This document shows positions 15,576 to 55,282 of a stretch of 64,000 nucleotides of DNA, piece by piece. Origin of the DNA: an uncultured bacterium (GTDB lineage Bacteria > Bacillota_I > Bacilli_A > RFN20 > CAG-826); the NCBI GenBank assembly GCA_949295325.1, contig CASFKG010000001.1, forward strand, positions 391,928 through 455,927. The letters run 5' to 3'. Under the pieces are notes generated by a model. The model saw only the letters and a list, made by a program, of their open reading frames with translations. It had not been told where the DNA came from and made no database searches. The translations under genes and the position numbers were made by a program. Within the stretch, counting starts at the first letter, position 1, and the number at the start of each line of letters is the position of its first letter.

Positions 15576-15585
15576 GTGCTTCTCC

Positions 15586-17622
<2,037 letters not shown>

Positions 17623-18914: not shown

Positions 18915-18985
18915 GCGGATAGTTTACTACTACGTAGTAAAAAAGAAAACGCCTTTCGGCGTCTTCCAAGCACTATTCAGAAGGC

Positions 18986-21614: not shown

Positions 21615-21636
21615 TTCGGGGAAAATTTACCACTTT

Positions 21637-21993
21637 TCAACAATTGCTAGTATACGAAAGGTCAAAATCTAAAGTTATCCACAATCGATAATTCGAAAAC
21701 ACAGCGCCGCTGCTAGGAAAAACGTTTTCCACAACTTTGAGAATGTGGATAAAATGTGGATAACTTATTAACAACCGAACGAAATGTGGATAACTAGAAG
21801 GGAATCGCCTGTTTTCCACGGTCGGACATCCTTGAAAAACCAGAAACCGTCTAGCTGAAATGCCTGTTTTCCACAGGAATGTTGATAATTTTTCCACCGG
21901 TGAGTGGATAACTTTTTCGGTCTCGCGTGCGAGAGGGCGCGCAATAGATATTCCTTGTGGGCGGGTGCCCGAGTCCCTATAATCTACCCGCAC
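21637..21993. promoter_or_regulatory. oriC part 1: DnaA-box cluster upstream of dnaA
   Basis: Perfect DnaA boxes TTATCCACA at 21674-21682 and TGTGGATAA at 21744-21752, 21755-21763 and 21785-21793. Near-matches TTTTCCACA at 21725-21733 and 21867-21875, and AGTGGATAA at 21903-21911. Confidence 0.8.
21955..21983 (+). promoter_or_regulatory. sigma-A-type promoter of rpmH
   Basis: -35 TTGTGG (21955-21960), 17-nt spacer, -10 TATAAT (21978-21983), then RBS AGAGGAGAG before the rpmH ATG. Confidence 0.5.
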
Positions 21994-22025
21994 GCACGTT
22001 TTTACCGCGAAGAGGAGAGTAGATC

Positions 22026-22163
22026 ATGAGCAAGAAAACCTATCAGCCCAGCAAGCTAAAGCACCAAAACGTCAACGGCTTCAGGGCCCGCATGAGCACC
22101 CATAACGGCCGCAAGGTCCTAGCCCGCCGCCGCGCCAAGGGCCGCGCCGTCATCAGCGCCTAA
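22026..22163 (+). CDS. rpmH: 50S ribosomal protein L34
   Basis: 45-aa [48 protein letters not shown]. Too short for the ORF track. Classic L34 sequence directly upstream of rnpA. Confidence 0.85.
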
Positions 22164-22165
22164 GG

Positions 22166-22504
22166 ATGAAAAAAACCGACCGGATCCTTTCTTACGAGGA
22201 GTTCGCGGAGATTAGGAAAAACGGGACCCGCGTCAGAAGCGGGTCCTTCCTAATAAGCTACCGGAAAGGCAGCACCGGCCGCGCCCGTGTCGGGATAAGC
22301 GTAAGCAAGAAAAACGGCAATGCCGTCATCCGCAACCTAATCAAAAGGCAAGTCCGTGCCGCCATCGACGACTGTCTCGATTATTCCTCGGGCCTAGATA
22401 TCGTCATTACCGCCCGTTACGGTTACGACACCGCCAAAGGCCGGGAAAACGCAGCCGAGTTGGCCGCGGAACTGAAAGCCATCGGAGCAACTAACATTGA
22501 ATAG
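22166..22504 (+). CDS. rnpA: ribonuclease P protein component
   Basis: 112-aa basic protein in the conserved rpmH-rnpA-yidC position. Confidence 0.9.
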   Translation: MKKTDRILSYEEFAEIRKNGTRVRSGSFLISYRKGSTGRARVGISVSKKNGNAVIRNLIKRQVRAAIDDCLDYSSGLDIVITARYGYDTAKGRENAAELAAELKAIGATNIE

Positions 22505-40376: not shown

Positions 40377-41810
40377 ATGGATAAGAAGACTCCCCTCCCG
40401 CTTCTATTGGCATTGGGTTCCTTGATTTTGGTGGGCTGCACGAATTCAAACCGCGATGACACCGGCACCGAAACCACGAGCGAATCGAGCATCGACCTCG
40501 ATATAAACGACCTTGACTACATCCTTGATAAATACGACGAGGCCGGATATCAGTACTCCTATTCAGGGGAACCGTGCACCATAACGATGACCCACTGGGA
40601 CTCTTCCGGTGCTTCCGTCGAAAGGGCCGTCATCGAAGCAATGCTGCAGGGCTTCGAGGCCAGATATCCTGACATAAAGGTCATATTGGAAATTTTTCCA
40701 AGTTACGAAGAAACATACGGCAACAACCTCGTTGCCAACAAGGTTACCGACGTCTTCCTGGTTCCGGACGGCGCCTTCACTTCCTGGGCTGGATTCAACA
40801 AGATGGTGAACCTCGACCCTTACATAGCTGCCTCCACCTTGGTCACGCCGGAAGACATGTTCCCGAGCGTCATTTCCCGTTATCAGTACAACTCTGCCGA
40901 GCAGAAAGCCGGCTCGGGTGTCCAACTTGCCCTTCCCAAGGACGTCGGTCCTTACGTCATGTTCTATAACAAGGACCACTTCGACGAGATGGGCGTTGAC
41001 TATCCGCCCGATGACCGGATCATGACCATCGACGAAGCCATCGACATGTGGACCGCCCTTACCAAATACGATTCGGACGGCAACACATCGCGTTACGCGT
41101 TGGGCGGCATCGGTCCCGAAGGACTCGTCTGGAGCGCCGGCGGCGACTTCCTCAACGAAACGCGCGACGCCTTCCCGACTTCCGAAAGCGACCTGAACGG
41201 CCTCCGCCGCGGATACCAGTTCCTCCAGGACGCCTATTTGACGACGAAGATCATGCCTCCCAACGAGTGGACCGCCGGCACCGACGCCGAAACGCTTTTC
41301 TCCATGCAGAGGATTTCCACGCTCGTCGCCGGGCGCTGGAACGTCACCTCCTTCCGTAGCCTTGGCTTCGATTGGGACGTCGCCTACGTTCCGGCTTTCG
41401 AAGTAGATCCTGTCAAAAACATGTATAGCGGTTCCGTCGGCTATGCCGTTTTCAACGGAAGCCAGCACATCGAAGCGGCTTGGAAACTGGTCGAGTACAT
41501 CGCTTCGCCGGAAGGACAGGAAATTCTTTCGGCGACCGGTTTCCAAATCCCCTGCTACTACGAACTGGCCAAGTCCGAAGACGTCAGGGCCCGGGAAGCC
41601 GACCTGTTTGGTTACGAGAACTACGATGTCTTCGTCGAGAGTGCACAGAACCAGTCCTACGGCCTCTGGCAGTACCGTTCAAATATTCGTTGGAAGACCT
41701 TGGGCTACGACACCGTTTCGGAGCGTCTCTTCAGTACCGATCCTTCGACCCGTTATACCGTCGACGAATTCCTGAATGTCGCCAGGACTGAGGTTAACAA
41801 ATACCTATAA
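40377..41810 (+). CDS. ABC sugar transporter substrate-binding lipoprotein (family-1 SBP)
   Basis: Lipobox LILVGCTNS and a 477-aa extracellular solute-binding fold, followed by two MalFG-type permeases. Confidence 0.85.
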   Translation: MDKKTPLPLLLALGSLILVGCTNSNRDDTGTETTSESSIDLDINDLDYILDKYDEAGYQYSYSGEPCTITMTHWDSSGASVERAVIEAMLQGFEARYPDIKVILEIFPSYEETYGNNLVANKVTDVFLVPDGAFTSWAGFNKMVNLDPYIAASTLVTPEDMFPSVISRYQYNSAEQKAGSGVQLALPKDVGPYVMFYNKDHFDEMGVDYPPDDRIMTIDEAIDMWTALTKYDSDGNTSRYALGGIGPEGLVWSAGGDFLNETRDAFPTSESDLNGLRRGYQFLQDAYLTTKIMPPNEWTAGTDAETLFSMQRISTLVAGRWNVTSFRSLGFDWDVAYVPAFEVDPVKNMYSGSVGYAVFNGSQHIEAAWKLVEYIASPEGQEILSATGFQIPCYYELAKSEDVRAREADLFGYENYDVFVESAQNQSYGLWQYRSNIRWKTLGYDTVSERLFSTDPSTRYTVDEFLNVARTEVNKYL

Positions 41811-41829: not shown

Positions 41830-42738
41830 ATGGTCAAAGCGAAAATAAGCCGCAAAACTAAGAAGAAAATCGATGCCTTGGAGGGCATGGCCTTTGCCGC
41901 GCCCCTTGTTATAGGTTTGCTTCTGTTTCTGGCATTTCCTTTGGTTTATGCGGTGATAATTTCCTTCACCGACTATACCTTTGCCACCGCGAACTCGTTT
42001 AATTTCATAGGATTCCAGAACTACATCGATGCCTTCAACGACCACTACTTCGTGAGGTCGCTGCTGAATGCCCTGATCAACTGCATAGGCGTTCCCATCG
42101 GAATGGCTCTTGCCTTGGTGCTTTCCGTCTTCCTCACGAAGATAAAGTGCTTCTCCAGCTTCTTCCGCTCGGTCCTTTATATCCCTACCGTCTGCGGCGC
42201 TGTCGCCATTACCTTCATTTGGAGTTGGATGTACCAGCCTCTTTACGGACTTATCGCCCAGCTCGGTAATGTTCTGGGTTGGGGGACCATCAATTTCCTG
42301 GGCGAAGACCTCTTTCTTCCTTCCATGATAGCGATGGGCATCTGGTCGGGGCTTGGAACGTCGATATTGCTGCTTTACGCGGCTCTCAAAAACGTACCCA
42401 AAGCCTTGTACGAAGCCGCCCAGGTCGACGGTGCCAACGCCGTTCAGCAGTTCTTCCACATAACGCTGCCGGCGGTCAGTCCCATCACTTTCTACATACT
42501 ACTCACCGGCATATCCGGTTCCTTCCAGGACTTCACCCGCTTCCAGGTCATGCGGGGCGACCAGATAACCGATTGGTCGATAATGCCGGTCTGGTACATA
42601 TACAAATACACTACCAACGCCTTCAACTACGAAGCCGGTTATGCCTGCGCGATGGGCATAATACTCGGATTGATCCTCCTCGCTTTTTCAGCCGTCCAGT
42701 TCGTGGCCAGCCGCTATTGGGTACATTACGATGAGTAA
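41830..42738 (+). CDS. ABC sugar transporter permease (MalF/UgpA-type)
   Basis: 6-TM protein with an EAA-loop region (...LYEAAQVDGAN...). Confidence 0.85.
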   Translation: MVKAKISRKTKKKIDALEGMAFAAPLVIGLLLFLAFPLVYAVIISFTDYTFATANSFNFIGFQNYIDAFNDHYFVRSLLNALINCIGVPIGMALALVLSVFLTKIKCFSSFFRSVLYIPTVCGAVAITFIWSWMYQPLYGLIAQLGNVLGWGTINFLGEDLFLPSMIAMGIWSGLGTSILLLYAALKNVPKALYEAAQVDGANAVQQFFHITLPAVSPITFYILLTGISGSFQDFTRFQVMRGDQITDWSIMPVWYIYKYTTNAFNYEAGYACAMGIILGLILLAFSAVQFVASRYWVHYDE

Positions 42739-43624
42739 AAAAGAGTTGAACGGGCAGGCGACGGCCATATCGCGGAGCACGGCCAAGAAATTGGCCAAGG
42801 CCCGGCATTTTCTAAGCCAGACCGGGATGTATCTCGTTTTGATAATATTCGCCCTCGTTATACTGATTCCTTTCCTGTTCGCCGTATCGACTTCCTTCAC
42901 GACCCCGGAAAACATTTTCGATTTCAAGTGGATACCTTCGCCTATAGATATCGGGAACTACGACAAACTGTTTACCGAAAACAACGTCTGGCAGGCGTTC
43001 CTCAACACCTTCCTCTACACCGTTCCGACCACTATAGTCGGTACCTTCTGCAGCGCCCTTTGCGCCTATAGCTGCGCCCGCATGAAATGGCCGGGGAGAA
43101 GGGTTGTCTACTACCTTATTCTGGCCACCATGGTCATTCCCGGCGTGATTACCCTCATGCCCAGTTACGTCCTTTTTGTCAATTTCTACGGCTGGTATGG
43201 CACCGCGCTTCCTATCGTCATCCCGGGAATGTTCGGATCGGCTGGGGCCATGTTCTTCCTCCACCAGTACTTCAAGACCCTTCCCAAGGAACTGGAAGAA
43301 GCGGCCGAAATCGACGGCATGGGACGTCTTAGGATCTTCCTGAAAATCATATTGCCGCTTTCGGTTCCGGCCGTTTTGACCCAGTTCATCTTGGCCTTCA
43401 ACGGGGCCTACAACGACTATATGACCCCGTTGCTTTACGTCGGAACCAATCCCGACATGTTTACCATCCAGCTATTGGTAAGCGGCCTTTCGACCGCCCA
43501 TAACCGCCAATACACCCTCCTTATGGCCGGGGCCGTTACCGCCCTGGTCCCGACGCTGATTCTCTATGTGGCCTGCCAACGCTTCTTCGTGGACGGCATC
43601 GCCATGACCGGTTTGAAGGAGTAA
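42731..43624 (+). CDS. ABC sugar transporter permease (MalG/UgpE-type)
   Basis: 6-TM protein with EAA motif (...LEEAAEIDGMGRLRIF...). Overlaps the upstream permease by 8 nt. Confidence 0.85.
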   Translation: MSKKELNGQATAISRSTAKKLAKARHFLSQTGMYLVLIIFALVILIPFLFAVSTSFTTPENIFDFKWIPSPIDIGNYDKLFTENNVWQAFLNTFLYTVPTTIVGTFCSALCAYSCARMKWPGRRVVYYLILATMVIPGVITLMPSYVLFVNFYGWYGTALPIVIPGMFGSAGAMFFLHQYFKTLPKELEEAAEIDGMGRLRIFLKIILPLSVPAVLTQFILAFNGAYNDYMTPLLYVGTNPDMFTIQLLVSGLSTAHNRQYTLLMAGAVTALVPTLILYVACQRFFVDGIAMTGLKE

Positions 43625-43626
43625 CC

Positions 43627-45999
43627 ATGAACAAGAAAGCACTGTATTTCGCCCTCCCCTTGGCCCTCGTTCTTGCTTCCTGCGGCCCTTCCTCGGGCGG
43701 GCCTTCTTCAGACAGCTCTTTGCAAAGCAGCCAAACCGACTACGATTTGCCGGACGCTCCGGCCGGATCGGTAACCGAGGGGAAAATCACCGTCGGCAAC
43801 GCTTCGATTTCTTTTGTTTTGAACAATTCGGGGAGGTATTACGTCGATTTTGGCTATTCCGGCAATACGGTCTATCGGAGTGTTGCCCCGGCGATAATCA
43901 ACACGAGAAGCGAGTCTTCCGGCATACTGGCAACCTACGACGAGAACACCTACGAGAGTACTTACGGGCGTCTCGAGGAAACCTCTTTCGGGATATTGGC
44001 AACCGCGAACATCGAAACCGGCGAAGGAAGCGTCTTCGAGGTAGCGGATGCCTATTACATACCGCTTGGATCTTCTTCTTTCGCCATCGAAAGGACCGTG
44101 ACGGTCAAGCAGAAGAAAGGCGAGGACGAAGGTTTCCAAAGCGAGATGTTGATTACCAATGTCGAAGGGAGCAGCAATTACGAAGACTTTACCTATTTCA
44201 TTCCGGCGATCATATATAAAGACACTGCGGAAATGAGGTCTGGTTCGATTGCCAGCAACCTCAACCTGACAGGGAAGGTCATGGTGAAGGAAACCCGTAC
44301 CGGGCTTCCCCTTTCCTTTATCCGCCATGACGGCGGGCCGTCCATCGGCCTATACCACTACGAACCGGAAATTAGCGTGGGCGACGAGATAGGCGGGGGC
44401 TTCAACGGCGAAGTAAGCGAAATGCTCGAATACGGATCGGTAGGGTTCCAAATCACCCCGCTTGTTGGCGTTGATCTCTGCTACCCCGCCACCGAAGGAC
44501 CCAATACCTATGATTCCGGCCAAGGCTGGGCCAAGCGTTTCCATCCGGTCGAAGAAGGATTCTCCCACAACTACACGATGGGTATCGTTATCCGCAGCGA
44601 CGGGGATTACAACACCGCGATGGCGGAAACGTATAAGGAAGCCTTCAGGGCGCAGAGCCACGAGTATCCGAAGGTAGACATGGAACAGATTTACGAAGAC
44701 AACCTTTATCTTTTCGGGCAGGAGTATCGGACATTCGGTGACAACGACGTCTACGGCGGCCTTCCTTGGTCGCTGACCCTGCCGGATGCCTCGGCCGACC
44801 AGGGTTACGCTTCCCAGTCGGGCTTCGTCGGGCAGCAGGCCCCGGCTGCTTATCAAATGCTTCGTTATGGTAGAAGCAACGGCGATAGCGGCTATATCGA
44901 AATGGGCACCAGGGCCCTCGATTTCTGGACTTCCCGAACCATCATGGGCAACTATTTCCCAATCATCTGGTGGGATCCCGGAAACGGATCTGCAGGCGGG
45001 ACTAGAAGGGACTACCCGACTTTCTTGCGCTGCATGGTCGATGCCGCCGAAGGCATTTTGGACGGGTATCTGATGGAAAAAGGCCTCGGCGTGGAACACG
45101 CCCAATGGCTTGAAGCGGTGACCAAAATCGCCGACAACCTGGTTGCCGTTCAAAACGAAAACGGTTCATTCTACCGGGCTTATAACCTTAACGGCACCGT
45201 CTGCACCGATACTTCCAACGCGACCTATCAGGGCACTAGCGAGCTGAATACTCCGATTGCCGTCCGCTTCTTGGCCAAGATGTTCGAGATGACCAGCGAT
45301 GCCAAGTACAAGGAGGCTGCCCTTTCCGCGGCCGATTACAGCTACGACGAACTTTATCTCGGACGCGGAAAATATGTCGGCGGTACCCCCGATAATCCCA
45401 ATACCGTCGACAAGGAAGCCGCGGTCTATGCGATGTATTGCTTCGAAGCCGCCCATTCCCTGTCCGGCGACGACAAATATCTGGCCGCCGCCGAACATGC
45501 AGCGGTCTGTGCGATGAGCTGGGTATATACCTACGACTTCGCGGTCCCAAGCCAACTGTCAAATCAGGAAATAAACACCTTCGAGGACGGCGGAGTCATC
45601 GGCTTTTCCTTCATTGCCACCGGGCATAGCTCCGCTGACAACTACGCCGCCTATATCTTCTTTGCCCTGTACCGTCTTTACCTCGAATCCGGCGACGACT
45701 TCTATTTCGACGCCGCGCTTCTCATCGAAAACGCCAGCAAATTGAGCAACGACTACGACGGACGCATGGGCTTCAAATACCGGGCCATGGGTCCCGAAGC
45801 CACCACCGTGGCCGACTTCAACTTCGCCTCCGTTGGAACCTGGCTTCCCTGGAGCGGTATCGCCAACATCGAGCCGATCATCCACTTCAAGACCTGCTTT
45901 GGAACCTATTCCATCGAAGATCTCACGATGGATCTGGGCGAACAGAAAGCCGCTCTCGAAGCCTATGGCATGGGCGGCAAACAAATTGGAAACGTTTAG
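43627..45999 (+). CDS. lipoprotein of unknown function, possible (alpha/alpha)6-toroid glycoside-hydrolase-like protein
   Basis: Lipobox LVLASCGPSS, 790 aa, with a Trp/Tyr-rich helical-hairpin C-terminal half. Starts 3 nt after the permease stop. Confidence 0.6.
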   Translation: MNKKALYFALPLALVLASCGPSSGGPSSDSSLQSSQTDYDLPDAPAGSVTEGKITVGNASISFVLNNSGRYYVDFGYSGNTVYRSVAPAIINTRSESSGILATYDENTYESTYGRLEETSFGILATANIETGEGSVFEVADAYYIPLGSSSFAIERTVTVKQKKGEDEGFQSEMLITNVEGSSNYEDFTYFIPAIIYKDTAEMRSGSIASNLNLTGKVMVKETRTGLPLSFIRHDGGPSIGLYHYEPEISVGDEIGGGFNGEVSEMLEYGSVGFQITPLVGVDLCYPATEGPNTYDSGQGWAKRFHPVEEGFSHNYTMGIVIRSDGDYNTAMAETYKEAFRAQSHEYPKVDMEQIYEDNLYLFGQEYRTFGDNDVYGGLPWSLTLPDASADQGYASQSGFVGQQAPAAYQMLRYGRSNGDSGYIEMGTRALDFWTSRTIMGNYFPIIWWDPGNGSAGGTRRDYPTFLRCMVDAAEGILDGYLMEKGLGVEHAQWLEAVTKIADNLVAVQNENGSFYRAYNLNGTVCTDTSNATYQGTSELNTPIAVRFLAKMFEMTSDAKYKEAALSAADYSYDELYLGRGKYVGGTPDNPNTVDKEAAVYAMYCFEAAHSLSGDDKYLAAAEHAAVCAMSWVYTYDFAVPSQLSNQEINTFEDGGVIGFSFIATGHSSADNYAAYIFFALYRLYLESGDDFYFDAALLIENASKLSNDYDGRMGFKYRAMGPEATTVADFNFASVGTWLPWSGIANIEPIIHFKTCFGTYSIEDLTMDLGEQKAALEAYGMGGKQIGNV

Positions 46000-46016: not shown

Positions 46017-48866
46017 ATGAACACTTTACTAGCCATGGTGCTGGCCCTTTCCTCCTTCGGCGGCCTTGCATCGGGAGACAGGCTTGGTGCCTTTGTCCCC
46101 TCTGACTGGTCGCTGTCGGGAGGCGGGGCGGTAAGTGCCTACTACGACATCGGCGACACCATAACCGCCAAGAGCACCCAAACAACGTTAAGGGGCAATT
46201 TCCTCATCAATGAATCCGAAACGCATCTTGGCGATTATACCGTTTCTATAACCGGAAGCGCCGAAGAGTCCTGGCCGGTAAGCAAATCAGTCCAGATCGG
46301 CATAGTCCCATGGTACTTGGATAGTAACAACTACATTCTCGTCTATATGGAATGGAGTCCGACTGAAAGACCAACCGGCATGCGCGTAGTCGAATTCACC
46401 GGGCGCATCGACGGACAGAACCCGGTCGTCTACAAGGACGGCGGATTCGTCCAATCGGAATGGAACGATGCCTGGATGGACGGGGCCAACGAACCATATG
46501 CCATCGATCCGTCGAGCGACTGGACGTTCAGCGTCAAAAAGGAAAGGAGCGCGGCCGGCGATACCGACGAGTTCACGGCCTATATAAACGGCAACAAAGT
46601 CGGATTCTATGGATTCCGTGACGTTCCCAAGTATTCGGCCAAGCCTGCCAAATCAGGTATCTACTGCTATAACGACAACGTCACCATAACCGATTATTCG
46701 GTGACGCCGGTCGCCGATGATAGTTTGTTTCACGATATCGGGGGAGGCTATGTCGGCAAGGCCGCTAGCGGCGACTGGGACGTAAGCGGGAACACCCTTT
46801 CTATCGATGCCTCTTCCAGCGTCGATCCCATATCCTCTACCATTGCCATTACGGAAAATACCTACGAAGGCAATTTCCGCTTAAAGGGAACGTTTGCTTC
46901 TTCCTCCCTCGTCAATAACGGCGGCATCGGCTTGGTGCCTTGGTACCAAGACGAAACCAACTATTTGACTGCTTATGTCGGTATGGTTGGAGGAACCAAA
47001 TCGCTCATGGTCGAAGGAATGGTCACCGCATATTCGGGCGGTGGCATGAGCCAAACCCCTATTAACGACACATTACCGTTGGATTCGGTGGAAAACGTCG
47101 GAGATATTTCGCTTATTGCCGATAAACAAGGCAGCAGAATTTCCCTATATCTCGAAGGTGGCGAAGATAACAAGCTCGAAGTAAGCAATCCCGCTTTCGC
47201 CACCGCTTCTTATATCGGGACTGCGGTCAGTGCCTGTAACGTAAGCATCGACTTCGAAAGCGAAGCCCTCGTCTACAACTCCTTCGACTGGTATGACCTA
47301 ACTCTCGGAGGAAACAAGGTAAGCGTCAAATCCGCGACCGATGCCGAAGGCCTCTTCGCGTACGACGAAGGCACCTACACAGTTTCCGATGAAGCGGTCG
47401 TTTCAGGCGATTTGACCAAACAGGCCGCCTTGTCCCTAGCCACTTCCTATGTCGGCGAAATATCCGTTTCCGCCGATTTCGCTCCTTTGGCGGAAGGCCA
47501 GGAATACGGTCTCTATCCGTTTTTGGTCGACGAAGACAACTACGTGCGCATCGGTCTTAAATCCGATGCATTTACCGTTTACTTGGCAAATAACGGAACC
47601 GAAACCCAGAGAGGTTATGTCCTGCCCGCCAATTTCGATTCCGCGGCTTCTCACAATATTTCCGCCGAACTCGCCAGCGGTACGCTCAATGTTACGGTAG
47701 ATGGCGCTTCGGTAGTCGAGAACCTGCCTGTCGATGGTTACGATTTCTCCGACTCCCTTATGATCGGTTTCTTCTTTGCCGGCAAGGGCGGCAGCGTTTC
47801 CAATCTTAGCTATAGCGGTTTCTATCCTAATTCCGCGAAGAACGTTGGAGCCTGGACCGTCTACGGTCCCCGGCCGGACACCTGGACATTCGACGAAGAA
47901 AACAACACCATCACCGGAAAATACGATGGAGGTACCGTTTGGCAGGCTACCAACGCACTAATGAGCAACGAAAAAGCCGATTTCTGGTGCGCTTCCACCA
48001 TCAATGTGTCCGCGGTGACCGCTTCCGAGCACAAAGTCGGACTCGTCCCCTATTATCTCGATTCCAACAACTACGTCTTCGTCTGGTTCAGCCGCTGGGC
48101 CGGTTCTACCGCCAACACCAATGTCACCGTGCGTATCAACGGCCAGATCCTCCCGCCGGAATGGGGAGAAAGGGAAATCGGAATCCAATTCGAAGGGACC
48201 GACAACAAACTCGAAGCCCATATCGAAGGGGACACCGTTTCCGTTTATGTTTCCGGGGCCTTCGCACCGGTATATACCGGCAATTACCCCGGATTGTCGG
48301 AGAGAACGCTGTCCGGAGCGAAGAGCGGCCTTAACATCTCCAACGTTTCGGCCACCTTCAAGGACACCGTCCTCGGTGCCGACGATAGGCCATATGCCTT
48401 CAACGAGAAGCCGTCCATCAACGAAATTGGCACCCGCGTCACCGCCGGCGTGGTAGGCGAAAGGATTGCCCTGCCGATCTACACCGCGACCAACAGCAAC
48501 AACGATCCGCTGACGGCGGTTGTCAACGTTACGGATCCTTCAGGCGAAGCCGTGGTTCTCGAAAGGAACGGATTTGTCCCCGAAACGGCCGGTATCTACC
48601 ACGTCGAAGTTACCTGCACCGACGACTGGGGCAATTCCGCCGACCCCGTTTCCTACGACATAACGGTAACAGAAGCCCAAACCGGCGGAGACACTTCTTC
48701 AGAGCCGGACACCGGCGGCAACACCGGCGGAGGGACAACCGATCCCGAAGGCAACGGGCTAGGTCTAATGCTCGGCATTGTGTTCGGTTGCCTAGGCGGC
48801 GCAGCCGTTATCGGCCTGGCTATCTTCCTCTTCATACGTTATCGCAACAAAAAGACAACGGAATAA
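46017..48866 (+). CDS. large surface protein with four tandem copies of an uncharacterised beta-rich module, Gly/Thr linker and C-terminal TM anchor
   Basis: Signal peptide and four roughly 200-aa repeats, each with the motif G-[IL]-[VY]-P-[WFY]-[YL]-x-D-x-[DN]-N-Y. A low-complexity GGDTSSEPDTGGNTGGGTTDPEGNG stalk follows. C-terminal hydrophobic helix plus RYRNKKTTE. Confidence 0.7.
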   Translation: MNTLLAMVLALSSFGGLASGDRLGAFVPSDWSLSGGGAVSAYYDIGDTITAKSTQTTLRGNFLINESETHLGDYTVSITGSAEESWPVSKSVQIGIVPWYLDSNNYILVYMEWSPTERPTGMRVVEFTGRIDGQNPVVYKDGGFVQSEWNDAWMDGANEPYAIDPSSDWTFSVKKERSAAGDTDEFTAYINGNKVGFYGFRDVPKYSAKPAKSGIYCYNDNVTITDYSVTPVADDSLFHDIGGGYVGKAASGDWDVSGNTLSIDASSSVDPISSTIAITENTYEGNFRLKGTFASSSLVNNGGIGLVPWYQDETNYLTAYVGMVGGTKSLMVEGMVTAYSGGGMSQTPINDTLPLDSVENVGDISLIADKQGSRISLYLEGGEDNKLEVSNPAFATASYIGTAVSACNVSIDFESEALVYNSFDWYDLTLGGNKVSVKSATDAEGLFAYDEGTYTVSDEAVVSGDLTKQAALSLATSYVGEISVSADFAPLAEGQEYGLYPFLVDEDNYVRIGLKSDAFTVYLANNGTETQRGYVLPANFDSAASHNISAELASGTLNVTVDGASVVENLPVDGYDFSDSLMIGFFFAGKGGSVSNLSYSGFYPNSAKNVGAWTVYGPRPDTWTFDEENNTITGKYDGGTVWQATNALMSNEKADFWCASTINVSAVTASEHKVGLVPYYLDSNNYVFVWFSRWAGSTANTNVTVRINGQILPPEWGEREIGIQFEGTDNKLEAHIEGDTVSVYVSGAFAPVYTGNYPGLSERTLSGAKSGLNISNVSATFKDTVLGADDRPYAFNEKPSINEIGTRVTAGVVGERIALPIYTATNSNNDPLTAVVNVTDPSGEAVVLERNGFVPETAGIYHVEVTCTDDWGNSADPVSYDITVTEAQTGGDTSSEPDTGGNTGGGTTDPEGNGLGLMLGIVFGCLGGAAVIGLAIFLFIRYRNKKTTE

Positions 48867-48881
48867 CTTATAGATAATCGC

Positions 48882-48918
48882 AAAAAAGTCGGTGTGGCCT
48901 TGACCAGCCGACTTTTTC
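48882..48918 (+). terminator. Rho-independent terminator
   Basis: AAAAAGTCGG...CCGACTTTTT hairpin (inner TGG...CCA pairing) followed by a T-run. Confidence 0.5.
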
Positions 48919-49042
48919 GTTTCATGGTGCCAAAATGCATAAAGGGCAAGTCTCGCGATATTAAGCAGCATAGTGCCAATTCATACAATGAAACTGCGAA
49001 GAACATCGTTTTGCTGGAACCAGCAGTTGAATTTTGAATCGA

Positions 49043-49056
49043 TGTAAGCGCTTACA
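49043..49056. promoter_or_regulatory. catabolite responsive element (cre) TGTAAGCGCTTACA
   Basis: Perfect 14-bp palindrome matching cre consensus TGWAANCGNTNWCA. It sits 17 bp upstream of the ATG at 49073 and abuts the RBS AGGAGA. Confidence 0.55.
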
Positions 49057-49072
49057 AGAAAGGAGACCGATC

Positions 49073-50989
49073 ATGAACGGAAAATGGCTCAGAATCGCCG
49101 GTGTCGCATTGCTCGCCGCTGGCGTTGTTACGGCCGGAACCGTCATTGCGACTTTGCCCGACACACTTCTGATGGCCGGAGCCAATGACGGCTACACCAT
49201 CAATCTCGACAGCGAAAACGCCCCGGAGCTCGCCGAAGGGACCGGTAGCATAACCGCTGTTAGCAATACTGGCTACGGCTTAGTTGGAATCGTCTATGAC
49301 GGGGCCACATCCAATGAAGGCAACCACGTTGCTCTAAACGAAGGAGGGAGCATCAGGAACTCCGACCAGATTACCGCCATTACCGATATTCAAATAAATT
49401 ACACCGGAACTCTCACGTTGGGCTTCGGTCGGACTGCTGAGGTTTTTGTTCCCGTCGCCGGTATCCCTAGCGGCGTTCCGACCGAAGTGGTTGGAACCCC
49501 TCTGTATTTTGATATTTCCGCCGGCGCCGGCGGGGCCGTTATCGAAAGCATAACCGTTACGTATTCGTGCGATCCGTCCCCGGTTTACGCGGATTTGGAC
49601 GTAACCGTTCGCCTTCCCGGCTATCTTGAGGGCGGCGAGGCCGTGACATTGAAACAAGGCGATTCCTCCGCGTCCATGAGTGTTACAACCGAAGACATAT
49701 TGACATACGAGGCGAACGTCAAAAATGTCGATCCCTATAGTGAGTTCACGGTCGTCGTCGGCGAAGCCACTAGCAACCCATTCCGTCTCGATTCCCTAAA
49801 TGGCCTGAGGGCCACGAAGGTTCTGTCTTCGGAAATCGACTACGACGGGTTCGTGAAAGGATTCGAGATGACGGACTACAAAGGTTCCGTTACCTATTCG
49901 CAGAGCGCGCCAGACGCCATAAAAGTCACGAGCAACGAATCCAACGGAAACTTCCTAACCAAGGACGCCGAACTTGGCAATAAGTATTCCGTAGAAGCCC
50001 ACATTCAAGGCACCGTTGATGCGTTGCCGGTTGCCAATAACATCAATGCCGGTCTCCTTGCCTATTACCAAGACGCCGACAATTGGCTGGCATTCTATGC
50101 CGAATGGAAGGTTGCTACCGAAACCAACAGGCCAAACGAATTGGCTTCTATCCAACCGGCCGTTTCAACAAACGGAGTTGTCAGTTATCCTTCTCCGATC
50201 TGGTGCGACGGAATTAGTGCCACCCCTCATGACGGGCTTGACCTCAAGATCGATGTCGAGATATCCACTGCCGGCGTCGTTGCCACCGCCACGGCATTGG
50301 TCGGCGGACAGACCAAGACCGGATCCGCGACCATGTCCGGAACCTTCGCGGAAGGCAGCAAAGTCGGTGTCTACTGTTTCGGCGATACCGTAGATTTCAC
50401 TTCCTTCTCCTACGAAAAATTGGAGATAACGACCGATTGGCAGGTCCTTGCCCCTGGCAGCAATCCTACTACATTCAAAGAGGACGGCGGTTCACTGGTC
50501 GTCAACAACGATGGAAACTGGAAAGCCGGTTTTGTCGGCAAGCCCGTTACCGTTGGTGCATCCTACAGCATCTCGTCTCATATTGCGGGAACTACTACCG
50601 GAAATGTCGAAAGCGAGTTGATGCTCGGATTCCTTGCCTACTATACCGATCCGGACAACTTCATCATCGCGTATGTCCAGTACTCACCAACAGACAGGCC
50701 CCACGAAGCACGGGAAGTCCAGATTACCGGCCATATCGGCGGGAACGATATCGGATGGTGCGATATCTGGACCGACGGGAACGGCGTTCATCCGGCAGAC
50801 GGCTTCGACCTGAAAGTCGACGTCGAAATCGGAGGCGGGAACGCCACCGTCTCGGCGACCATGACCACCGGGGCCGGCTATGTGAAAACCGGTAGTCGGA
50901 CGGTCGAAAACGTGGAAAATCTTCCTACCCATCTCGGCGTTTATTGCCAAAACGAGACGGCGACCTATACCGGCCTCGTCATCGAATAA
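49073..50989 (+). CDS. surface protein paralog with N-terminal signal-anchor and two or more copies of the same beta-rich repeat module
   Basis: Start chosen at MNGKWLRIAGVALLAAGVV (RBS AGGAGA 6 nt upstream). Repeats carry GLLAYYQDADNW and GFLAYYTDPDNF motifs like those of the 46017..48866 protein. Confidence 0.7.
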   Translation: MNGKWLRIAGVALLAAGVVTAGTVIATLPDTLLMAGANDGYTINLDSENAPELAEGTGSITAVSNTGYGLVGIVYDGATSNEGNHVALNEGGSIRNSDQITAITDIQINYTGTLTLGFGRTAEVFVPVAGIPSGVPTEVVGTPLYFDISAGAGGAVIESITVTYSCDPSPVYADLDVTVRLPGYLEGGEAVTLKQGDSSASMSVTTEDILTYEANVKNVDPYSEFTVVVGEATSNPFRLDSLNGLRATKVLSSEIDYDGFVKGFEMTDYKGSVTYSQSAPDAIKVTSNESNGNFLTKDAELGNKYSVEAHIQGTVDALPVANNINAGLLAYYQDADNWLAFYAEWKVATETNRPNELASIQPAVSTNGVVSYPSPIWCDGISATPHDGLDLKIDVEISTAGVVATATALVGGQTKTGSATMSGTFAEGSKVGVYCFGDTVDFTSFSYEKLEITTDWQVLAPGSNPTTFKEDGGSLVVNNDGNWKAGFVGKPVTVGASYSISSHIAGTTTGNVESELMLGFLAYYTDPDNFIIAYVQYSPTDRPHEAREVQITGHIGGNDIGWCDIWTDGNGVHPADGFDLKVDVEIGGGNATVSATMTTGAGYVKTGSRTVENVENLPTHLGVYCQNETATYTGLVIE

Positions 50990-51007: not shown

Positions 51008-51037
51008 AGCGGGTTCCTTCAACGGGACCCGCTTTTT
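51008..51037 (+). terminator. Rho-independent terminator
   Basis: AGCGGGT-tccttcaacggg-ACCCGCT followed by TTTTTG. Overlaps the last codons of the convergent ABC ATPase gene. Confidence 0.5.
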
Positions 51038-51714
51038 GTTGTACGGTCCGCCACCAAGTTAAGCTTCCCGCCTTCCAAACGGTAATGCCTGTCGAAGTGG
51101 CGCGACTCGTTTACGTCGTGTCCGACGTATATCAAGGTCGTGTCGCTGTTTTTTACCAGACGGAACATTTCTTTTAAAAGGGCGTCTTTTGTTCTGACGT
51201 CCACGCCGGAAAATGGCTCGTCGGCCAGGAAGAGCGACGGTTTCCTTACCAGCGCCCGGTAAAGGGCCACGGTTTCCTTTTGGCCGAGGCTCAGCTCTTT
51301 AGGCTTGAAATTGAGCAGTTTTGCCACCGGCGAGCCTTTGATTATTTCCTTGATCAGTTTGTCTTTCTCCATTCTTTTCAGGCCGTAGCCGTCCAAAGCC
51401 GCATAGAGATTCCCGTAGACGGTCAGAAACGGATATAGGAATGCTTCCTGGAAGCAAAAGGCGACGTCGCGGCTCGAAGCCTTGATGTCCAGTATTTCCT
51501 CTCCCCTGAATTTCAGGGAACCTTCATCGGGGTCCAATAACCCGGCAAGGATTTTCAGCAATGTGGTTTTGCCCTCCCCGCTTTGGCCGCTAAGGAAGAT
51601 GGTATCCCCTTGATCGAATTCGAAGCAGAGATTTTCGAACACTTTGGTTACCGGCTCTTTCCTCGTTTTCCCTTTGTAGGAAAAATCCAATCCCCGGAGC
51701 ACGTAATCACTCAT
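51019..51714 (-). CDS. ABC transporter ATP-binding protein with degenerate signature motif
   Basis: Walker A GQSGEGKTT, Walker B LFLADEP, and signature LSLGQKE in place of LSGGQ. 231 aa. Confidence 0.8.
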   Translation of the reverse strand: MSDYVLRGLDFSYKGKTRKEPVTKVFENLCFEFDQGDTIFLSGQSGEGKTTLLKILAGLLDPDEGSLKFRGEEILDIKASSRDVAFCFQEAFLYPFLTVYGNLYAALDGYGLKRMEKDKLIKEIIKGSPVAKLLNFKPKELSLGQKETVALYRALVRKPSLFLADEPFSGVDVRTKDALLKEMFRLVKNSDTTLIYVGHDVNESRHFDRHYRLEGGKLNLVADRTTKSGSR

Positions 51715-52570
51715 TTTGGCCCTCCCTATAAAGCCCTTTCCGGTATTGGGAAGGAAAACCGTTTTTGTTTACGGATTCGTCGGCCATGTAGGCAAACAAA
51801 AGAAAGTTCGAAATTCCGGCAAGGGAGTTGAAGAAGGCATAGAGGAAATCCAGAACGAGCACCGCGATTATGCAGATGCCGGAAGGAATGGCGCCCGCGA
51901 ACAAATAGAAAAGGGCAAACGGCCATATGCCCATCAGGGCGGCCAGAAGGGAATAAGGCAGGTATTTGAATAGAAGCCCGGCCGCGGCCTTGAAATATCC
52001 GGGCACCGTATTTTTGTAGATGTCGCGCAGGAATATCATGTATGTAAGGGAAACGAACAAAAGGCCAAGCAAAACAAAATAGACGATCAGCAGGCCGTAA
52101 TGGAGGAACACCGCTTCCCCGGACGATACCAAGGAAATGAGAAAATAGAGTCCGTAGGCAGCCGTTCCGTAAGCCAGGCCCGTTGCCAGATTGGGCTTCC
52201 AGTTGTCCTTTAGTCCTTCGAGAAAATCGTCTTTCAGGATGTAACCCTCGTTGTAGCTGTAGCGGCGATATACCCTCGCCGCACCGGTTGCGGCAAGCGA
52301 ATAGAGGACGGAAAAGGCAATCAAGGACAAATAGGAAAGGCGCCTGAAGGCTACAAGTTCAAGCCATTGTTTTTCGGCATCTTCGGCGTAGGCGATGATG
52401 ATCGAGCCTTCGGCAATCAGTCCGTAAAGGCCGTAGGCCATAACGGGCAGAAGAAAAAGGAAAACGATTAGGGAGAGTTTGAAAAGTACTAGCTTTTGGT
52501 ATTTCAGGGCATTCAAAAGGAGCCCCCTTCTCGTAAGCGGCAGTTCGAGATCGCGGCTAACTATTTTCAC
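51707..52570 (-). CDS. polytopic membrane protein (putative permease partner of the ABC ATPase)
   Basis: 287 aa with about 6 hydrophobic helices. Overlaps both the downstream ATPase start and the upstream GH2 stop. Confidence 0.6.
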   Translation of the reverse strand: MKIVSRDLELPLTRRGLLLNALKYQKLVLFKLSLIVFLFLLPVMAYGLYGLIAEGSIIIAYAEDAEKQWLELVAFRRLSYLSLIAFSVLYSLAATGAARVYRRYSYNEGYILKDDFLEGLKDNWKPNLATGLAYGTAAYGLYFLISLVSSGEAVFLHYGLLIVYFVLLGLLFVSLTYMIFLRDIYKNTVPGYFKAAAGLLFKYLPYSLLAALMGIWPFALFYLFAGAIPSGICIIAVLVLDFLYAFFNSLAGISNFLLFAYMADESVNKNGFPSQYRKGLYREGQNE

Positions 52571-54344
52571 CGGTGATTATCTTAGTCAGTTTTTCCAAGG
52601 GAATCTTGGGTTTTCTATCGGCGTCCAAGATGCCGTTTTGCTCGCTGTAGGTATCGGTCAGCTGGGTCAAGCAATATCCGGCCACGGATTTGTTCGTCCG
52701 CGCGGCGTCGAGTATGCCCTTTAGCCTTTCGGCGAAGGAGTCTTCGTCATTCACGACGCCATAACCCCAGGCTCCTTCCTTCACCGAGTAGCCGATTCCT
52801 CCTATTTCGTCCAGGAAAATCGGTTGGCCTTGGTAATTGTAGCCATTGGCGAAAGTAAGGCGGGTCTGCGAGTATTTCGGAAGTCCTTTGTTTTGCGTGA
52901 TTATGTCGATATCGCTGTAGAAGTCCGCCAATTCCGCCGGGTTTTGCGCGTAATTGTGAAGCGTTATGGCATCGCTCAGAGTATGTTCCCAACCGTCGTT
53001 GGAAATGACGATTCTCGTCTCGTCCAAGGCTTTGGTCGCGTGGTAGAGGGCAAGGCTTAGCTCTTGCTCGTTTTTCCTCGAATCTATGTCCGGCACGCCC
53101 CATGATTCGTTTATAGGCATGTACATCACGATGGACGGGTGGTTGTAGTGGCCCAAAACCGCTTCCGGCCATTCCCTCAATAGCGACCTAACCGTGTTGT
53201 CGCCAAACGAATACGGCGAGGGCATTTCCAGGCTGCAAAATAGACCGACCACGTCGCAGGCGTAGTAGAAGCGGTCGTCTTCGATTTTCTGGTGCATCCT
53301 CACGCCGTTGAAGCCCAGGGATTTGATGAGGGTGACTTCCCTCATTATTTCCCCCATGTCCTTGTAGGTAGGACCGCTATCCGGAAGGAAACCCTGATCC
53401 ATGACCATGCTCAGGAAAACCGGATTCCTATTTAGGAGAAACGCGTTGTTGCGTGTTTCGAAGAAACGGACGCCGAAATAGGTATCGACGGCGTCTGAAC
53501 CATTCCCGGCCTTGAGAATCGCCCTTACCTCGTAGAGTTCCGGGCTCTGGGGCGACCATAGGCCGCGGTTGAAGTCGCTTCCTTCGTCGGTTTTCGTCGA
53601 TACGGAAATGCGGCCCTTGGATTGGCTCGAGGCCGCGGAAAACGTTCCGATCGGCTTGCCTTTGAAACTGACATCGAGGGAAAGCACCATGTTTTGGACC
53701 GGATTTTCGATCTCGTAGTCCGCAACCGCGGTTTCTCCTCCCTTTGACGGGGTAAAACGCAGGGATTTGATCCTGGTATGGGGAACTTCCTCGATGAAAA
53801 CGCTTTGGTAAATGCCGCTAAAAGGCGTATACCAGCATCCCCAAGGCTTCTCACGCCATGACTGCTTCCCGCGCGGTCGGTCGTTGGCGTTGTCGTCTTC
53901 GACCCTCACGGCAATCAGGTTTTCGCCGTTTTTCACGCTGCCGGTTATGTCGATTTGGAAGGAACTGAAACCGCCTTCGTGGGTGCCGCAAAGCATACCG
54001 TTGACGTAAATCTCGGCCTTGTAGTCGACAGCCATGAAGTTCAGGAGCAGATCATTGCCTTTAGCCGGCCTATGCAGCTCCCTTTTTAGGAAATACCAAA
54101 CGACGGGATGGTAGCCTTCTTCCCCTATCCCAGAACTTTTGGTCTGGTAGGCAAAAGGCACGGTGATACTGCGAATTTCGTTAGGTATTCTCTTATAAAA
54201 ACCCTTAGCTTTCCCCAAATTGCCGTCATCGTATAGGAAACCCCATTCGCCGTTAAGCAGTGTGTAGTTTTCTCTTACGAAGTTAGGACGTGGGTAGGCT
54301 TCCCGGAAGCCTCTTACATGGCGGATATGTTCCATAATTAACAT
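52557..54344 (-). CDS. glycoside hydrolase family 2 (beta-galactosidase/beta-glucuronidase-like)
   Basis: 595 aa with GH2 domain order (sugar-binding jelly roll, Ig-like, TIM barrel) and a ...FNGVRMHQKIED... segment resembling the GH2 catalytic region. Confidence 0.8.
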   Translation of the reverse strand: MLIMEHIRHVRGFREAYPRPNFVRENYTLLNGEWGFLYDDGNLGKAKGFYKRIPNEIRSITVPFAYQTKSSGIGEEGYHPVVWYFLKRELHRPAKGNDLLLNFMAVDYKAEIYVNGMLCGTHEGGFSSFQIDITGSVKNGENLIAVRVEDDNANDRPRGKQSWREKPWGCWYTPFSGIYQSVFIEEVPHTRIKSLRFTPSKGGETAVADYEIENPVQNMVLSLDVSFKGKPIGTFSAASSQSKGRISVSTKTDEGSDFNRGLWSPQSPELYEVRAILKAGNGSDAVDTYFGVRFFETRNNAFLLNRNPVFLSMVMDQGFLPDSGPTYKDMGEIMREVTLIKSLGFNGVRMHQKIEDDRFYYACDVVGLFCSLEMPSPYSFGDNTVRSLLREWPEAVLGHYNHPSIVMYMPINESWGVPDIDSRKNEQELSLALYHATKALDETRIVISNDGWEHTLSDAITLHNYAQNPAELADFYSDIDIITQNKGLPKYSQTRLTFANGYNYQGQPIFLDEIGGIGYSVKEGAWGYGVVNDEDSFAERLKGILDAARTNKSVAGYCLTQLTDTYSEQNGILDADRKPKIPLEKLTKIITGENS

Positions 54345-54373: not shown

Positions 54374-55282
54374 ATGTTCGGCGCGTGGCATTATATGCAA
54401 GTTGACACCATGGGAGTTAAGGCTAAGTTCAACGACGATTTCCTCAAAGGGAGTCTGACCTTATACAACTACAATCCGAGCGTTTCCCGTTCCTTTTTGA
54501 TTTACCCGCAGCTGGTCGGCCACCAGATCGTGGGTCCCGCTTACTACAACGAAGTGGAATTCGGGAACACCTACATGCTCAATTTCACCGTCTCCGGTTC
54601 CGGCGAATTCCGCAGTCCGGGCTTGACCCAAACCGTCGGGCCAGGCGACTTGATATTCATTCATAACTACCTCCATCATTCTCTGAAGCCAAGCAAGGGC
54701 AAGCCGTGGGAGTTCTACTGCATCCATATTTTCGATAACGACATTGTCAGCCGTTTTTACCGTTCGGTCTTGGCCAAGCAGGGATTTTTGATCCGCGGGT
54801 TTCCCAAGCAGAAGGTCGTGCCGGCCATTCTCTCGATTCTAGACAAGCTCGAGGAACAGACGGAGCACGACGACTTCGCCATTTCCAAGGTCCTATACAA
54901 CATGCTTGCCGATATTACCGAGGAAGCCGAATCGCGGGCCTTCAAATCATTCAATCCCGCGGTTGACGACGTCGTGGCCTTCATCAAGGACAATTTCGAC
55001 AAGCCGTTGCCCCTTAAGGCCATATTGGCCAAGACGACATATAGCAAAAACCATCTCGAGCGCCTGTTCAAAGCCCAGATGAACATGACCATCCAGGAAT
55101 ACATTTTTTACCTGAGACTGCTGAGGAGCCAGGAACTTCTGGTTTCGACCGATATGCCGTTAAAGGAAATCGCGGACAAGGTGGGATTAAGCGAGTACCG
55201 TTCCCTTTATCACATGTTCAAGAAAGCAACCGGCTTCTCACCAGACGAATATAGGAGGGTGGCCGGGTCCAAAAAAGCATGA
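54374..55282 (+). CDS. AraC-family transcriptional regulator (cupin sensor plus HTH)
   Basis: N-terminal cupin-like domain and C-terminal tandem HTH (...YSKNHLERLFKAQMNMTIQEYIFYLRL...). Divergent from the GH2 gene. The start could be a downstream Met. Confidence 0.85.
   Translation: MFGAWHYMQVDTMGVKAKFNDDFLKGSLTLYNYNPSVSRSFLIYPQLVGHQIVGPAYYNEVEFGNTYMLNFTVSGSGEFRSPGLTQTVGPGDLIFIHNYLHHSLKPSKGKPWEFYCIHIFDNDIVSRFYRSVLAKQGFLIRGFPKQKVVPAILSILDKLEEQTEHDDFAISKVLYNMLADITEEAESRAFKSFNPAVDDVVAFIKDNFDKPLPLKAILAKTTYSKNHLERLFKAQMNMTIQEYIFYLRLLRSQELLVSTDMPLKEIADKVGLSEYRSLYHMFKKATGFSPDEYRRVAGSKKA

Follow-up and report, generated by a model that had tools for sequence, protein, structure and literature searches.

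Two neighbouring genes in the window (the whole 64-kb stretch of DNA analysed here) encode proteins that carry the same module of about 190 amino acids, four times in protein A (949 aa) and twice in protein B (638 aa). All six modules are homologous and are old copies of one unit. This unit is an unmodelled, divergent relative of the DUF1080/CBM66 domains and not a new fold. The main clue to the function of A and B is their operon context. On balance, we favour the reading that both are membrane-anchored, multivalent glycan-binding surface proteins, which would capture sugar polymers for a Gram-positive-style polysaccharide utilisation locus.

Six copies of one module in two proteins

The two proteins present the following features.

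46017-48866, + strand: protein A, 949 aa, an ORF with the ribosome-binding site GGAGAGGAG upstream; identical to database protein P0001
46017-46076, + strand: probable signal peptide of A, aa 1-20, MNTLLAMVLALSSFGGLASG, as read from the sequence
46086-46715, + strand: module A1, aa 24-233, motif GIVPWYLDSNNY at 46299-46334
46716-47273, + strand: module A2, aa 234-419, motif GLVPWYQDETNY at 46929-46964 (hhalign)
47292-47825, + strand: module A3, aa 426-603, the most divergent, motif GLYPFLVDEDNY at 47508-47543 (hhalign)
47826-48386, + strand: module A4, aa 604-790, motif GLVPYYLDSNNY at 48039-48074 (hhalign)
48387-48695, + strand: conserved domain of A of about 100 aa, aa 791-893, probably Ig-like (sub-threshold Pfam/NCBIfam matches)
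48696-48761, + strand: low-complexity stalk of A rich in Gly/Thr/Pro/Asp, aa 894-915, read from the sequence
48762-48863, + strand: C-terminal transmembrane (TM) segment of A, aa 916-941, with the basic tail YRNKKTTE (Kyte-Doolittle)
49073-50989, + strand: protein B, 638 aa from ATG, with AAGGAG 8 nt upstream of the ATG
49088-49156, + strand: N-terminal hydrophobic segment of B, a signal peptide or signal anchor (Kyte-Doolittle 2.19, aa 19-42 of the 651-aa ORF)
49157-49819, + strand: N-terminal region of B, about 220 aa, not a module copy (hhalign to every module profile at most 0.2%)
49835-50425, + strand: module B1, motif GLLAYYQDADNW at 50051-50086 (hhalign)
50411-50986, + strand: module B2, motif GFLAYYTDPDNF at 50627-50662, closing the protein (hhalign)

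The start of B is most likely the ATG at 49073, preceded by the ribosome-binding site AAGGAG. At 49034, the TTG merely opens the mechanical ORF. The database copy of B (P0009) has 638 aa as well.

The original prediction described a signature motif recurring with a period of roughly 200 aa. The six motif instances it gave are exact translations at their coordinates. They begin at aa 95, 305, 498, and 675 of A. In B, they begin at aa 327 and 519 in the 638-aa numbering, or at 340 and 532 when counted along the mechanical ORF of 651 aa. The resulting spacings, 210, 193, and 177 aa in A and 192 aa in B, agree with that period. Translated in all six frames, the whole window contains no signature match besides the six sites in A and B. 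Shuffling A and B gave no match to the signature in 20,000 shuffles, and a looser pattern appeared 0.0008 times per shuffle on average versus six observed.

Homology among the modules was examined at two levels. In BLASTP of the cut units, B1 and B2 share 35% identity (E 1.6e-24), and A1 matches B2 (E 4e-15), B1 (E 2e-12), and A4 (E 7e-7). Module A3 is weak in these pairwise comparisons. We also compared, by hhalign, one profile for each module position, built from 31 A-type and 14 B-type orthologs. All 15 pairs of modules align with a probability of 96.5-100% (E 9e-10 to 1.4e-46, 114-183 columns) in this HMM-HMM comparison. More precisely, the probabilities are 99.0% for A1-A2, 97.7% for A1-A3, 98.8% for A2-A3, 99.6% for A1-A4, and 100% for A1-B1 (E 2.7e-39) and B1-B2 (E 1.4e-46). 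The controls, the C-terminal region of A and the N-terminal region of B, reach at most 3% against the modules. This rules out a degenerate fifth module in the former and a seventh in the latter.

The units had been described as divergent products of old duplications, and this holds. We sought DNA-level repeats among the modules, as a sign of recent duplication, and found none. Other copies of module 1 share 41-70% identity with module 1 of A, against 12-25% for the other module positions. The module positions are each conserved across orthologs, so the duplications are old.

Three later segments had also been proposed as shared. Two of them, TAYINGNKV and TVDGASV, align together at profile positions ~143-146, but VRINGQILP is a separate conserved strand at positions ~105-108 (G108 is 93% conserved). 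The residues conserved at all module positions are structural Gly, Asn, and aromatics alone. Those conserved at single positions are mostly Trp, Tyr, and Asp.

Modules A2 and A3 have few conserved residues apart from glycines, and beta-sandwich repeats of surface proteins are often spacers. This could suggest that the modules are mainly a structural scaffold with no specific ligand, for example projecting from the membrane a solute-binding protein or P790, the lipoprotein encoded directly upstream of A. However, the signature and the position-specific aromatic and acidic residues are kept over deep divergence, and every module position is maintained as a distinct ortholog group. Besides, A is already spaced by its separate Ig-like domain and its stalk. 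We regard a mere spacer role as very unlikely.

Fold and family of the module

Pfam and NCBIfam scans of A, of B, and of 32 modules taken one by one gave no module above threshold; the matches, SH2, PA14, and GH12 among them, were noise. By hmmscan, PF06439 (3keto-disac_hyd, formerly DUF1080), a family of the Concanavalin-like clan, has no match in A or B at E<=1, nor in 32 individual modules at E<=10; its gathering threshold of 26.8 bits is not reached by the modules. Searches of PDB sequences with phmmer and hmmsearch gave no meaningful match to the modules either. The motif had not been recognised as a named family. This stands with regard to Pfam, NCBIfam, and PDB sequence-model matches, but the module is not an orphan, as it matches PF06439 at the profile level. 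The alignment of the modules against 18 PF06439-type domains, 16 of which pass as PF06439 and all of which were drawn from the module profile's own matches (a selection bias), has an hhalign probability of 98.5% (E 2.8e-15) over 165 columns, the whole domain. In protein P0113, the envelope of the module HMM (1739-1918) coincides with the PF06439 match (1742-1915). We place the module as a divergent relative of DUF1080/CBM66 because its profile aligns with genuine PF06439 at 98.5%. A confident alignment to a well-known Pfam family of established function, DUF1080 for instance, had been named as what would count against the original prediction. The result comes close to this, at the profile-profile level only and with no confident direct Pfam match.

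[quoted passage not shown] The PF06439-type profile matches it with E 2.5e-14. In the search of PDB sequences with the module profile, BsCBM66 was not listed at E<=10. A direct assignment of the module to CBM66 was dropped, since the module profile and the single sequence of BsCBM66 align with a probability of 4.8% (hhalign). The link between them is only structural and transitive, via the PF06439-type domains.

The structure model predicts a two-sheet jelly-roll of ~12-14 strands, as in the Concanavalin A-like lectin/glucanase superfamily. The predicted beta-sandwich is superposable on BsCBM66, with 12% identity. This agrees with the earlier proposal of a beta-rich unit with a concanavalin- or lectin-like sandwich. 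In the DSSP assignment of the model, strands 70-80 and 83-91 bracket the motif (model residues 73-84). The signature, G-[ILV]-x-[PA]-[WYF]-Y-x-D-x-x-N-[YF], is, as modelled, the central beta-hairpin (strand, D-x-x-N turn, strand). It lies opposite IGVMFRYQDxNNYY in the PF06439 alignment and corresponds to the DUF1080 hairpin G-V-M-F-R-Y-Q-D-x-N-N-Y-Y, with an aromatic replacing the arginine. The Arg is conserved in PF06439, whereas the module has Trp, Tyr, or Phe there, after Pro or Ala. Unlike PF06439, module 1 and the modules of B present the extra segments E-W-x(3)-R-P...R...I-T-G and W-N-D-x-W-x-D-G. The arrangement also differs: PF06439 domains are single and periplasmic, and the modules form tandem arrays on membrane-anchored proteins.

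CBM66 modules recognise the ends or side chains of glycans and enhance the action of the enzymes to which they are appended (PMC10992016, PMC11002231). The ligands known to date are fructan termini and xanthan after lyase treatment. In contrast, A and B have four or two tandem copies and no catalytic domain. A profile search gives a family of about 660 cluster representatives. Catalytic domains of GH43 or GH30 adjoin related modules within one polypeptide, and CE2 esterase domains also occur in some of the 32 distant proteins scanned.

The modules could themselves be enzymes, like 3-keto-glycoside hydrolases or the beta-jelly-rolls of endo-glycanases and lyases, which would make A a tandem multi-catalytic surface enzyme. 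PF06439 includes proposed 3-ketoglycoside hydrolases (bioRxiv 10.1101/573055), and the fold is common to GH16 and PL7 enzymes too. A literature search on a hydratase role of DUF1080 returned nothing usable. However, the best structural neighbours of the model are non-catalytic (CBM66, a GH43 C-terminal module, and lectins), and arrays of four to thirteen tandem copies per protein, with fusion to GH43 or GH30 catalytic domains, are usual for CBMs. The module positions have no conserved acidic residue in common, and A and B contain no GH16 motif (E[ILV]D..E, E.D..E, and E.D.E were searched). Among the scanned ORFs of the locus, no dehydrogenase of a 3-keto pathway was seen, and P790, always found next to A, is a separate candidate for the enzyme. 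A catalytic role of the modules is therefore unlikely, and binding is the role we prefer.

Anchoring and gene neighbourhood

The orthologs of A have classical K-rich signal peptides. At the other end of A, the Kyte-Doolittle profile peaks at 2.53 (aa 913-943). The layout of stalk, TM segment, and basic tail is present in 31/31 of the A orthologs examined. Neither an LPXTG nor an NPXTG motif occurs in A or in these orthologs. With the LPXTG_anchor model (TIGR01167), the ortholog tails score 12.5 bits against a cut-off of 15.9, and A itself has no match. So, A shares with LPXTG/sortase-anchored proteins the signal peptide, modular ectodomain, low-complexity stalk, hydrophobic segment, and basic tail, but not the LPXTG-type motif. 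The TM anchor with a basic tail proposed earlier is supported for A and all 31 orthologs, and its display may be sortase-independent. Such display had been likened to that of Mollicutes-like organisms. The same architecture appears in MAGs labelled Christensenellaceae, Oscillospiraceae, and Clostridia, which means that this type of anchor is not tied to wall-less cells.

The stalk and C-terminal anchor had been attributed to both proteins. They belong to A; B has neither. It carries one hydrophobic segment, at the N-terminus, and its C-terminus is module B2. Pfam and NCBIfam scans of the N-terminal region of B gave no match. The Ig-like domain of A is strongly conserved among orthologs and unrelated to the module (hhalign). 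Its sub-threshold matches are InlK_D3 (E 0.016), Filamin (0.09), and the LapB repeat (0.12).

The neighbouring genes are the following.

40377-41810, + strand: sugar ABC solute-binding protein (Pfam SBP_bac_1)
41830-42738 and 42731-43624, + strand: two sugar ABC permeases (Pfam BPD_transp_1)
43627-45999, + strand: P790, a 790-aa lipoprotein directly upstream of A, with an N-terminal beta-sandwich and an (alpha/alpha)6 barrel
51019-51714, - strand: ABC ATPase (Pfam, NCBIfam)
51707-52570, - strand: MusI-like membrane protein (Pfam, NCBIfam)
52557-54344, - strand: GH2 glycosidase (Pfam, NCBIfam)
54374-55282, + strand: AraC regulator (Pfam, NCBIfam)

The genes for the solute-binding protein, the two permeases, P790, and A follow each other closely on the same strand. 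Their order is kept in about 30 gut MAG species of RFN20 Bacilli and Christensenellales, and the linkage persists where A shares only 22-28% identity. P790 invariably adjoins A across these loci, and the ABC ATPase, MusI-like protein, GH2, and AraC genes accompany the cassette in many of them. None of the CAZy-type models recognises P790; from its modelled architecture, it is probably an uncharacterised carbohydrate-active enzyme. Close relatives are annotated as Candidatus Enteromonas, which its naming paper places in the GTDB order RFN20, family CAG-826, with a genome of ~1.2 Mb.

Judged by its genes, the locus is a putative polysaccharide utilisation locus of the Gram-positive type: a transporter, predicted carbohydrate-active enzyme(s), a regulator, and a putative surface binding protein, in conserved linkage.

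Gut organisms could also use A and B as adhesins, outside nutrient acquisition, through lectin or protein-protein contacts with host mucus, epithelium, or other cells. The predicted fold also resembles galectins, thrombospondin/COMP C-terminal domains, and staphylococcal Aap/SraP lectin modules, and a stalk-plus-anchor layout is typical of adhesins. Nevertheless, A is clustered with the sugar ABC importer and P790 in ~30 species, down to 22% identity, and this linkage argues for a metabolic role. The GH43 and GH30 fusions of related modules, and the CE2 domains of some distant proteins, point away from adhesion as well. We consider it improbable that A and B are adhesins, and glycan capture remains the preferred reading.

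The SusE/F-like surface glycan-binding proteins (SGBPs) of Bacteroidota and the CBM-rich proteins of Gram-positive polysaccharide utilisation loci offer a comparison. Like A and B as we picture them, they are non-catalytic, surface-tethered, and made of tandem beta-sandwich modules. Their genes also lie beside those for a transporter and a regulator, together with an enzyme at the surface and a glycosidase inside the cell. However, SusE/F belong to a different fold family, and A is fixed by a TM helix at its C-terminus rather than by lipid or sortase. The importer of the A/B locus is an ABC system instead of SusC/D, and its hosts are uncultured lineages of RFN20 and Christensenellales. The resemblance is an analogy of role, with no homology.

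Proposed role and meaning

For A and B, we infer surface exposure, carbohydrate binding, a non-catalytic role, and cooperation with P790 and the transporter. Protein A would be exported through its N-terminal signal peptide and held at the membrane by the C-terminal TM helix, behind the short flexible stalk and the Ig-like spacer. Protein B would be held, or released, through its N-terminal hydrophobic segment. Together with the surface lipoprotein P790, they may capture and process an extracellular polysaccharide. The co-encoded ABC transporter would import the fragments, and the cytoplasmic GH2 could trim them, under AraC-type control.

A further reading is offered tentatively. The module may be the founding member of a new CBM family, sister to CBM66/DUF1080, and P790 may represent a new glycoside hydrolase or lyase family. 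Jointly, they would form an undescribed surface capture-and-cleave system for a glycan of the diet or the host in uncultured, small-genome RFN20 Bacilli and Christensenellales of the gut.

On the preferred reading, A and B would be proteins of an ordinary type that belong to a family not yet catalogued. Concepts would not change, as tandem ConA-like binding modules in glycan-utilisation loci are a well-known design. Proteins of the A and B type are at present all labelled 'hypothetical'. The gut lineages of RFN20 and Christensenellales are uncultured or barely cultured, and their diet is poorly known. For them, the locus is a concrete, conserved, and experimentally tractable candidate for glycan use. 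Once the ligand is defined, a binding-module family of ~660 sequence clusters would be gained, and probably an enzyme family too.

Repeated modules of proteins A and B

The modules are encoded by two genes on the same strand:

46017-48866, + strand, protein A (949 aa, modules A1-A4)
49073 (ATG, after AAGGAG), + strand, protein B (638 aa, modules B1 and B2; the mechanical start is TTG 49034, and the 638-aa form is also in public databases)

A six-frame translation of the 64 kb found the module signature at six places only. Each peptide translates exactly as the original prediction had quoted it, and 20,000 shuffles of A and B produced no match. Spacings of 210, 193, 177 and 192 aa agree with the proposed unit of about 200 aa. 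By BLASTP of the cut units, B1 and B2 share 35% identity (E 1.6e-24). The pairs A1-B2, A1-B1 and A1-A4 are also clearly significant, and A3 is marginal. For hhalign, we then aligned the orthologs (31 A-type, 14 B-type) separately at each module position. The 15 pairwise comparisons of these alignments all gave a probability of 96.5-100% (E 9e-10 to 1.4e-46, 114-183 columns). The A C-terminal and B N-terminal regions reached at most 3% against every module. Therefore, the periodicity survives proper alignment.

The duplications are old, as had been proposed. No DNA-level repeat was found between modules, and each position forms its own conserved ortholog group. Module-1 copies of orthologs share 41-70% identity with A module 1, and other positions 12-25%. 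The signature is present at every module position in all close orthologs. Of the later segments described as shared, TAYINGNKV and TVDGASV are indeed one segment; VRINGQILP is a different one.

The layout of A is common to 31/31 A-type orthologs, and LPXTG is absent from all of these:

aa 1-20, probable signal peptide
aa 24-233, 234-419, 426-603 and 604-790, modules
aa 791-893, conserved domain of about 100 aa (Ig-like matches sub-threshold only)
aa 894-915, Gly/Thr/Pro/Asp stalk
aa 916-941, single TM helix
C-terminal end, basic tail YRNKKTTE

The stalk, TM anchor and basic tail attributed to both proteins thus belong to A only. At its N-terminus, protein B has a single hydrophobic segment. 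A region of about 220 aa comes next, and B1 and B2 fill the rest up to the C-terminus. That region (49157-49819, + strand) is conserved in B-type proteins (14 cluster representatives). No family was detected for it, and it is not a degenerate module copy.

In roughly half of the A-type orthologs, a conserved Cys motif ([KN]KGCGGS, GCGCGS or GCGS) stands directly in front of the hydrophobic segment and basic tail at the C-terminus (P0003, P0004, P0028, P0030, P0032, P0035, P0036, P0039, P0041, P0065, P0074, P0075, P0096). The motif is not found in this part of protein A (48696-48863). Against the MYXO-CTERM, Loki-CTERM and LPXTG anchor models, these C-termini show sub-threshold similarity only. 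They may carry an undescribed Cys-containing sorting or lipidation signal of these gut lineages. Two longer orthologs from Logan assemblies (P0008 and P0019, 1545-1787 aa) exceed A by two or three module copies at the N-terminus. Between these, at aa ~217-443, lie Cys/His-rich repeats (C-x2-C ... H-x-H, e.g. HTHDYETSTQYASDGENHYKVCSECG), which resemble small inserts of a metal-binding or disulfide-rich kind.

Fold and family of the module

Pfam-A and NCBIfam recognized neither A, B nor any of 32 individual modules. Sequence and profile searches with the modules against all PDB chains gave nothing. The guess of a concanavalin-like sandwich was right: Foldseek matches of the module model are galectins, legume lectins and CBM66. 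The figures listed for the fold comparison are ~14 for legume-type lectins and ~12-13 for GH16 and PL7 enzymes. In the predicted model, the signature maps to a hairpin: strand 70-80, a D-x-x-N turn, then strand 83-91.

We searched 1.84 billion cluster representatives exhaustively by HMMER, using the module profile. This retrieved 660 proteins at E<=1e-3, of which 226 reached E<=1e-10 and 91 reached E<=1e-30; each has 1-13 copies. Among 431 modules taken from the 150 best proteins, conservation of the signature is G 91%, [PA] 73%, Y 83%, D 84%, N 90% and [YF] 83%. Two more glycines reach 88-93%.

The weaker matches form two groups. The first has PKYGIYACYKDxxN hairpins and adjoins GH43 or GH30 catalytic domains; a scan of 32 distant proteins also showed CE2 esterase domains in some of them. 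The second has IGVMFRYQDxNNYYRFSMD hairpins and overlaps PF06439 matches residue for residue (in P0113, envelope 1739-1918 and PF06439 match 1742-1915). We aligned the window-type module with 18 domains of this second group, 16 of which pass as PF06439, a set drawn from the module profile's own matches (hhalign 98.5%, E 2.8e-15, 165 columns, hairpins in register). A confident DUF1080 alignment, which the original prediction would have taken against it, is thus nearly reached, at the profile-profile level only. The PF06439-type profile matches BsCBM66 (E 2.5e-14); the window-type profile compared directly with the BsCBM66 sequence gave 4.8%, no match. These profile links place the module, as a divergent family that has no model so far, within the concanavalin-like superfamily, in its DUF1080/CBM66 branch. 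The module is homologous to both DUF1080/PF06439 and CBM66, but below the membership thresholds of both.

Gene cluster and distribution

Within a same-strand cluster of tightly packed genes, A comes fifth. It starts 17 nt after the gene for P790, a 790-aa lipoprotein with an (alpha/alpha)6 barrel, and B lies 206 nt downstream of A:

40377-41810, same strand as A, solute-binding protein
up to 43624, same strand as A, two ABC permeases
43627-45999, same strand as A, P790 lipoprotein
downstream, convergent to A and B, short ABC ATPase, MusI-like membrane protein and GH2 glycosidase; an AraC regulator comes next

The ATPase (230 aa, without a MalK-type regulatory domain) overlaps the 286-aa MusI-like protein (51019-52570, - strand). 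In many loci the two are again found together close to the cassette, and they may energize the sugar importer encoded on the other strand.

The locus lies ~20-30 kb from oriC. The origin neighbourhood (12939-22500) includes dnaA (20259-21614, - strand), dnaN (18986-20107), recF-like (17623-18969), gyrB (15586-17622) and gyrA (12939-15575). GC dips to 0.485 at 20-22 kb, where the cumulative GC skew changes slope.

Scanning one genome per GTDB species, we found 32 loci with A-type proteins, all in gut MAGs (titled Bacilli, Candidatus Enteromonas, Coprobacillus CAG:826, Firmicutes CAG:449, Erysipelotrichaceae, Christensenellaceae, Clostridia or similar). P790 is upstream of A in about 30 of them, usually directly. 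The order SBP-permease-permease-P790-A is kept wherever the contig permits, even with A at 22-28% identity. GH2, AraC and ATPase genes are often nearby, and one locus has a GH51 arabinofuranosidase and CE2 esterases among its neighbours. A few titles are implausible: GTDB representative MAGs L007, L004, L006, L014 and L023 have the Firmicutes-type cassette but are titled Alistipes onderdonkii, Staphylococcaceae or Bacteroidaceae, and are probably chimeric or mislabelled bins. One close relative of A carries the annotation Candidatus Enteromonas sp. This genus has been placed in order RFN20 (family CAG-826); its genomes are ~1.2 Mb in size and have 57% GC (PMC8035907). The window GC of 51-59% is consistent with this value.

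Predicted role of the locus

Most likely, A and B are multivalent proteins that are exposed on the cell surface and bind glycans non-catalytically, as part of a predicted Gram-positive-style polysaccharide utilisation locus. They would hold the polymer at the membrane surface, where P790 would cleave or modify it. The ABC system would import the products, GH2 would finish degradation in the cytoplasm, and AraC would control expression. The solute-binding protein is weakly GanS-like and the GH2 weakly beta-galactosidase-like; these similarities are hints to the ligand, nothing more.

The modules are unlikely to be enzymes themselves. Putative binding is favoured over catalysis because the nearest structures of the modelled module are non-catalytic modules, and because the modules occur in tandem arrays and also appended to GH43 and GH30 catalytic domains. 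Moreover, no acidic residue common to all module positions and no GH16 motif were found in A and B. Trp, Tyr and Asp make up most of the residues conserved at individual module positions (A1 W99, W113, D151; B2 R547, W562, D564, W566), and a separate candidate enzyme always adjoins A. Since each position has its own conserved set, the modules may differ in sub-specificity, or divide binding and spacing among them. That the modules are mainly spacers seems improbable, and we give a similarly small chance to A and B being host adhesins.

The fold and the superfamily are already known, and so is the design, in which an anchored surface protein with tandem lectin-like modules accompanies a transporter and enzymes. 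New are a module family of ~660 clusters with a distinctive aromatic hairpin signature, overlooked by current domain libraries, and its fixed pairing, in gut lineages of which little is known, with an (alpha/alpha)6 lipoprotein that is just as unannotated. The locus is not surprising; it is a useful annotation and a lead for CAZyme discovery.
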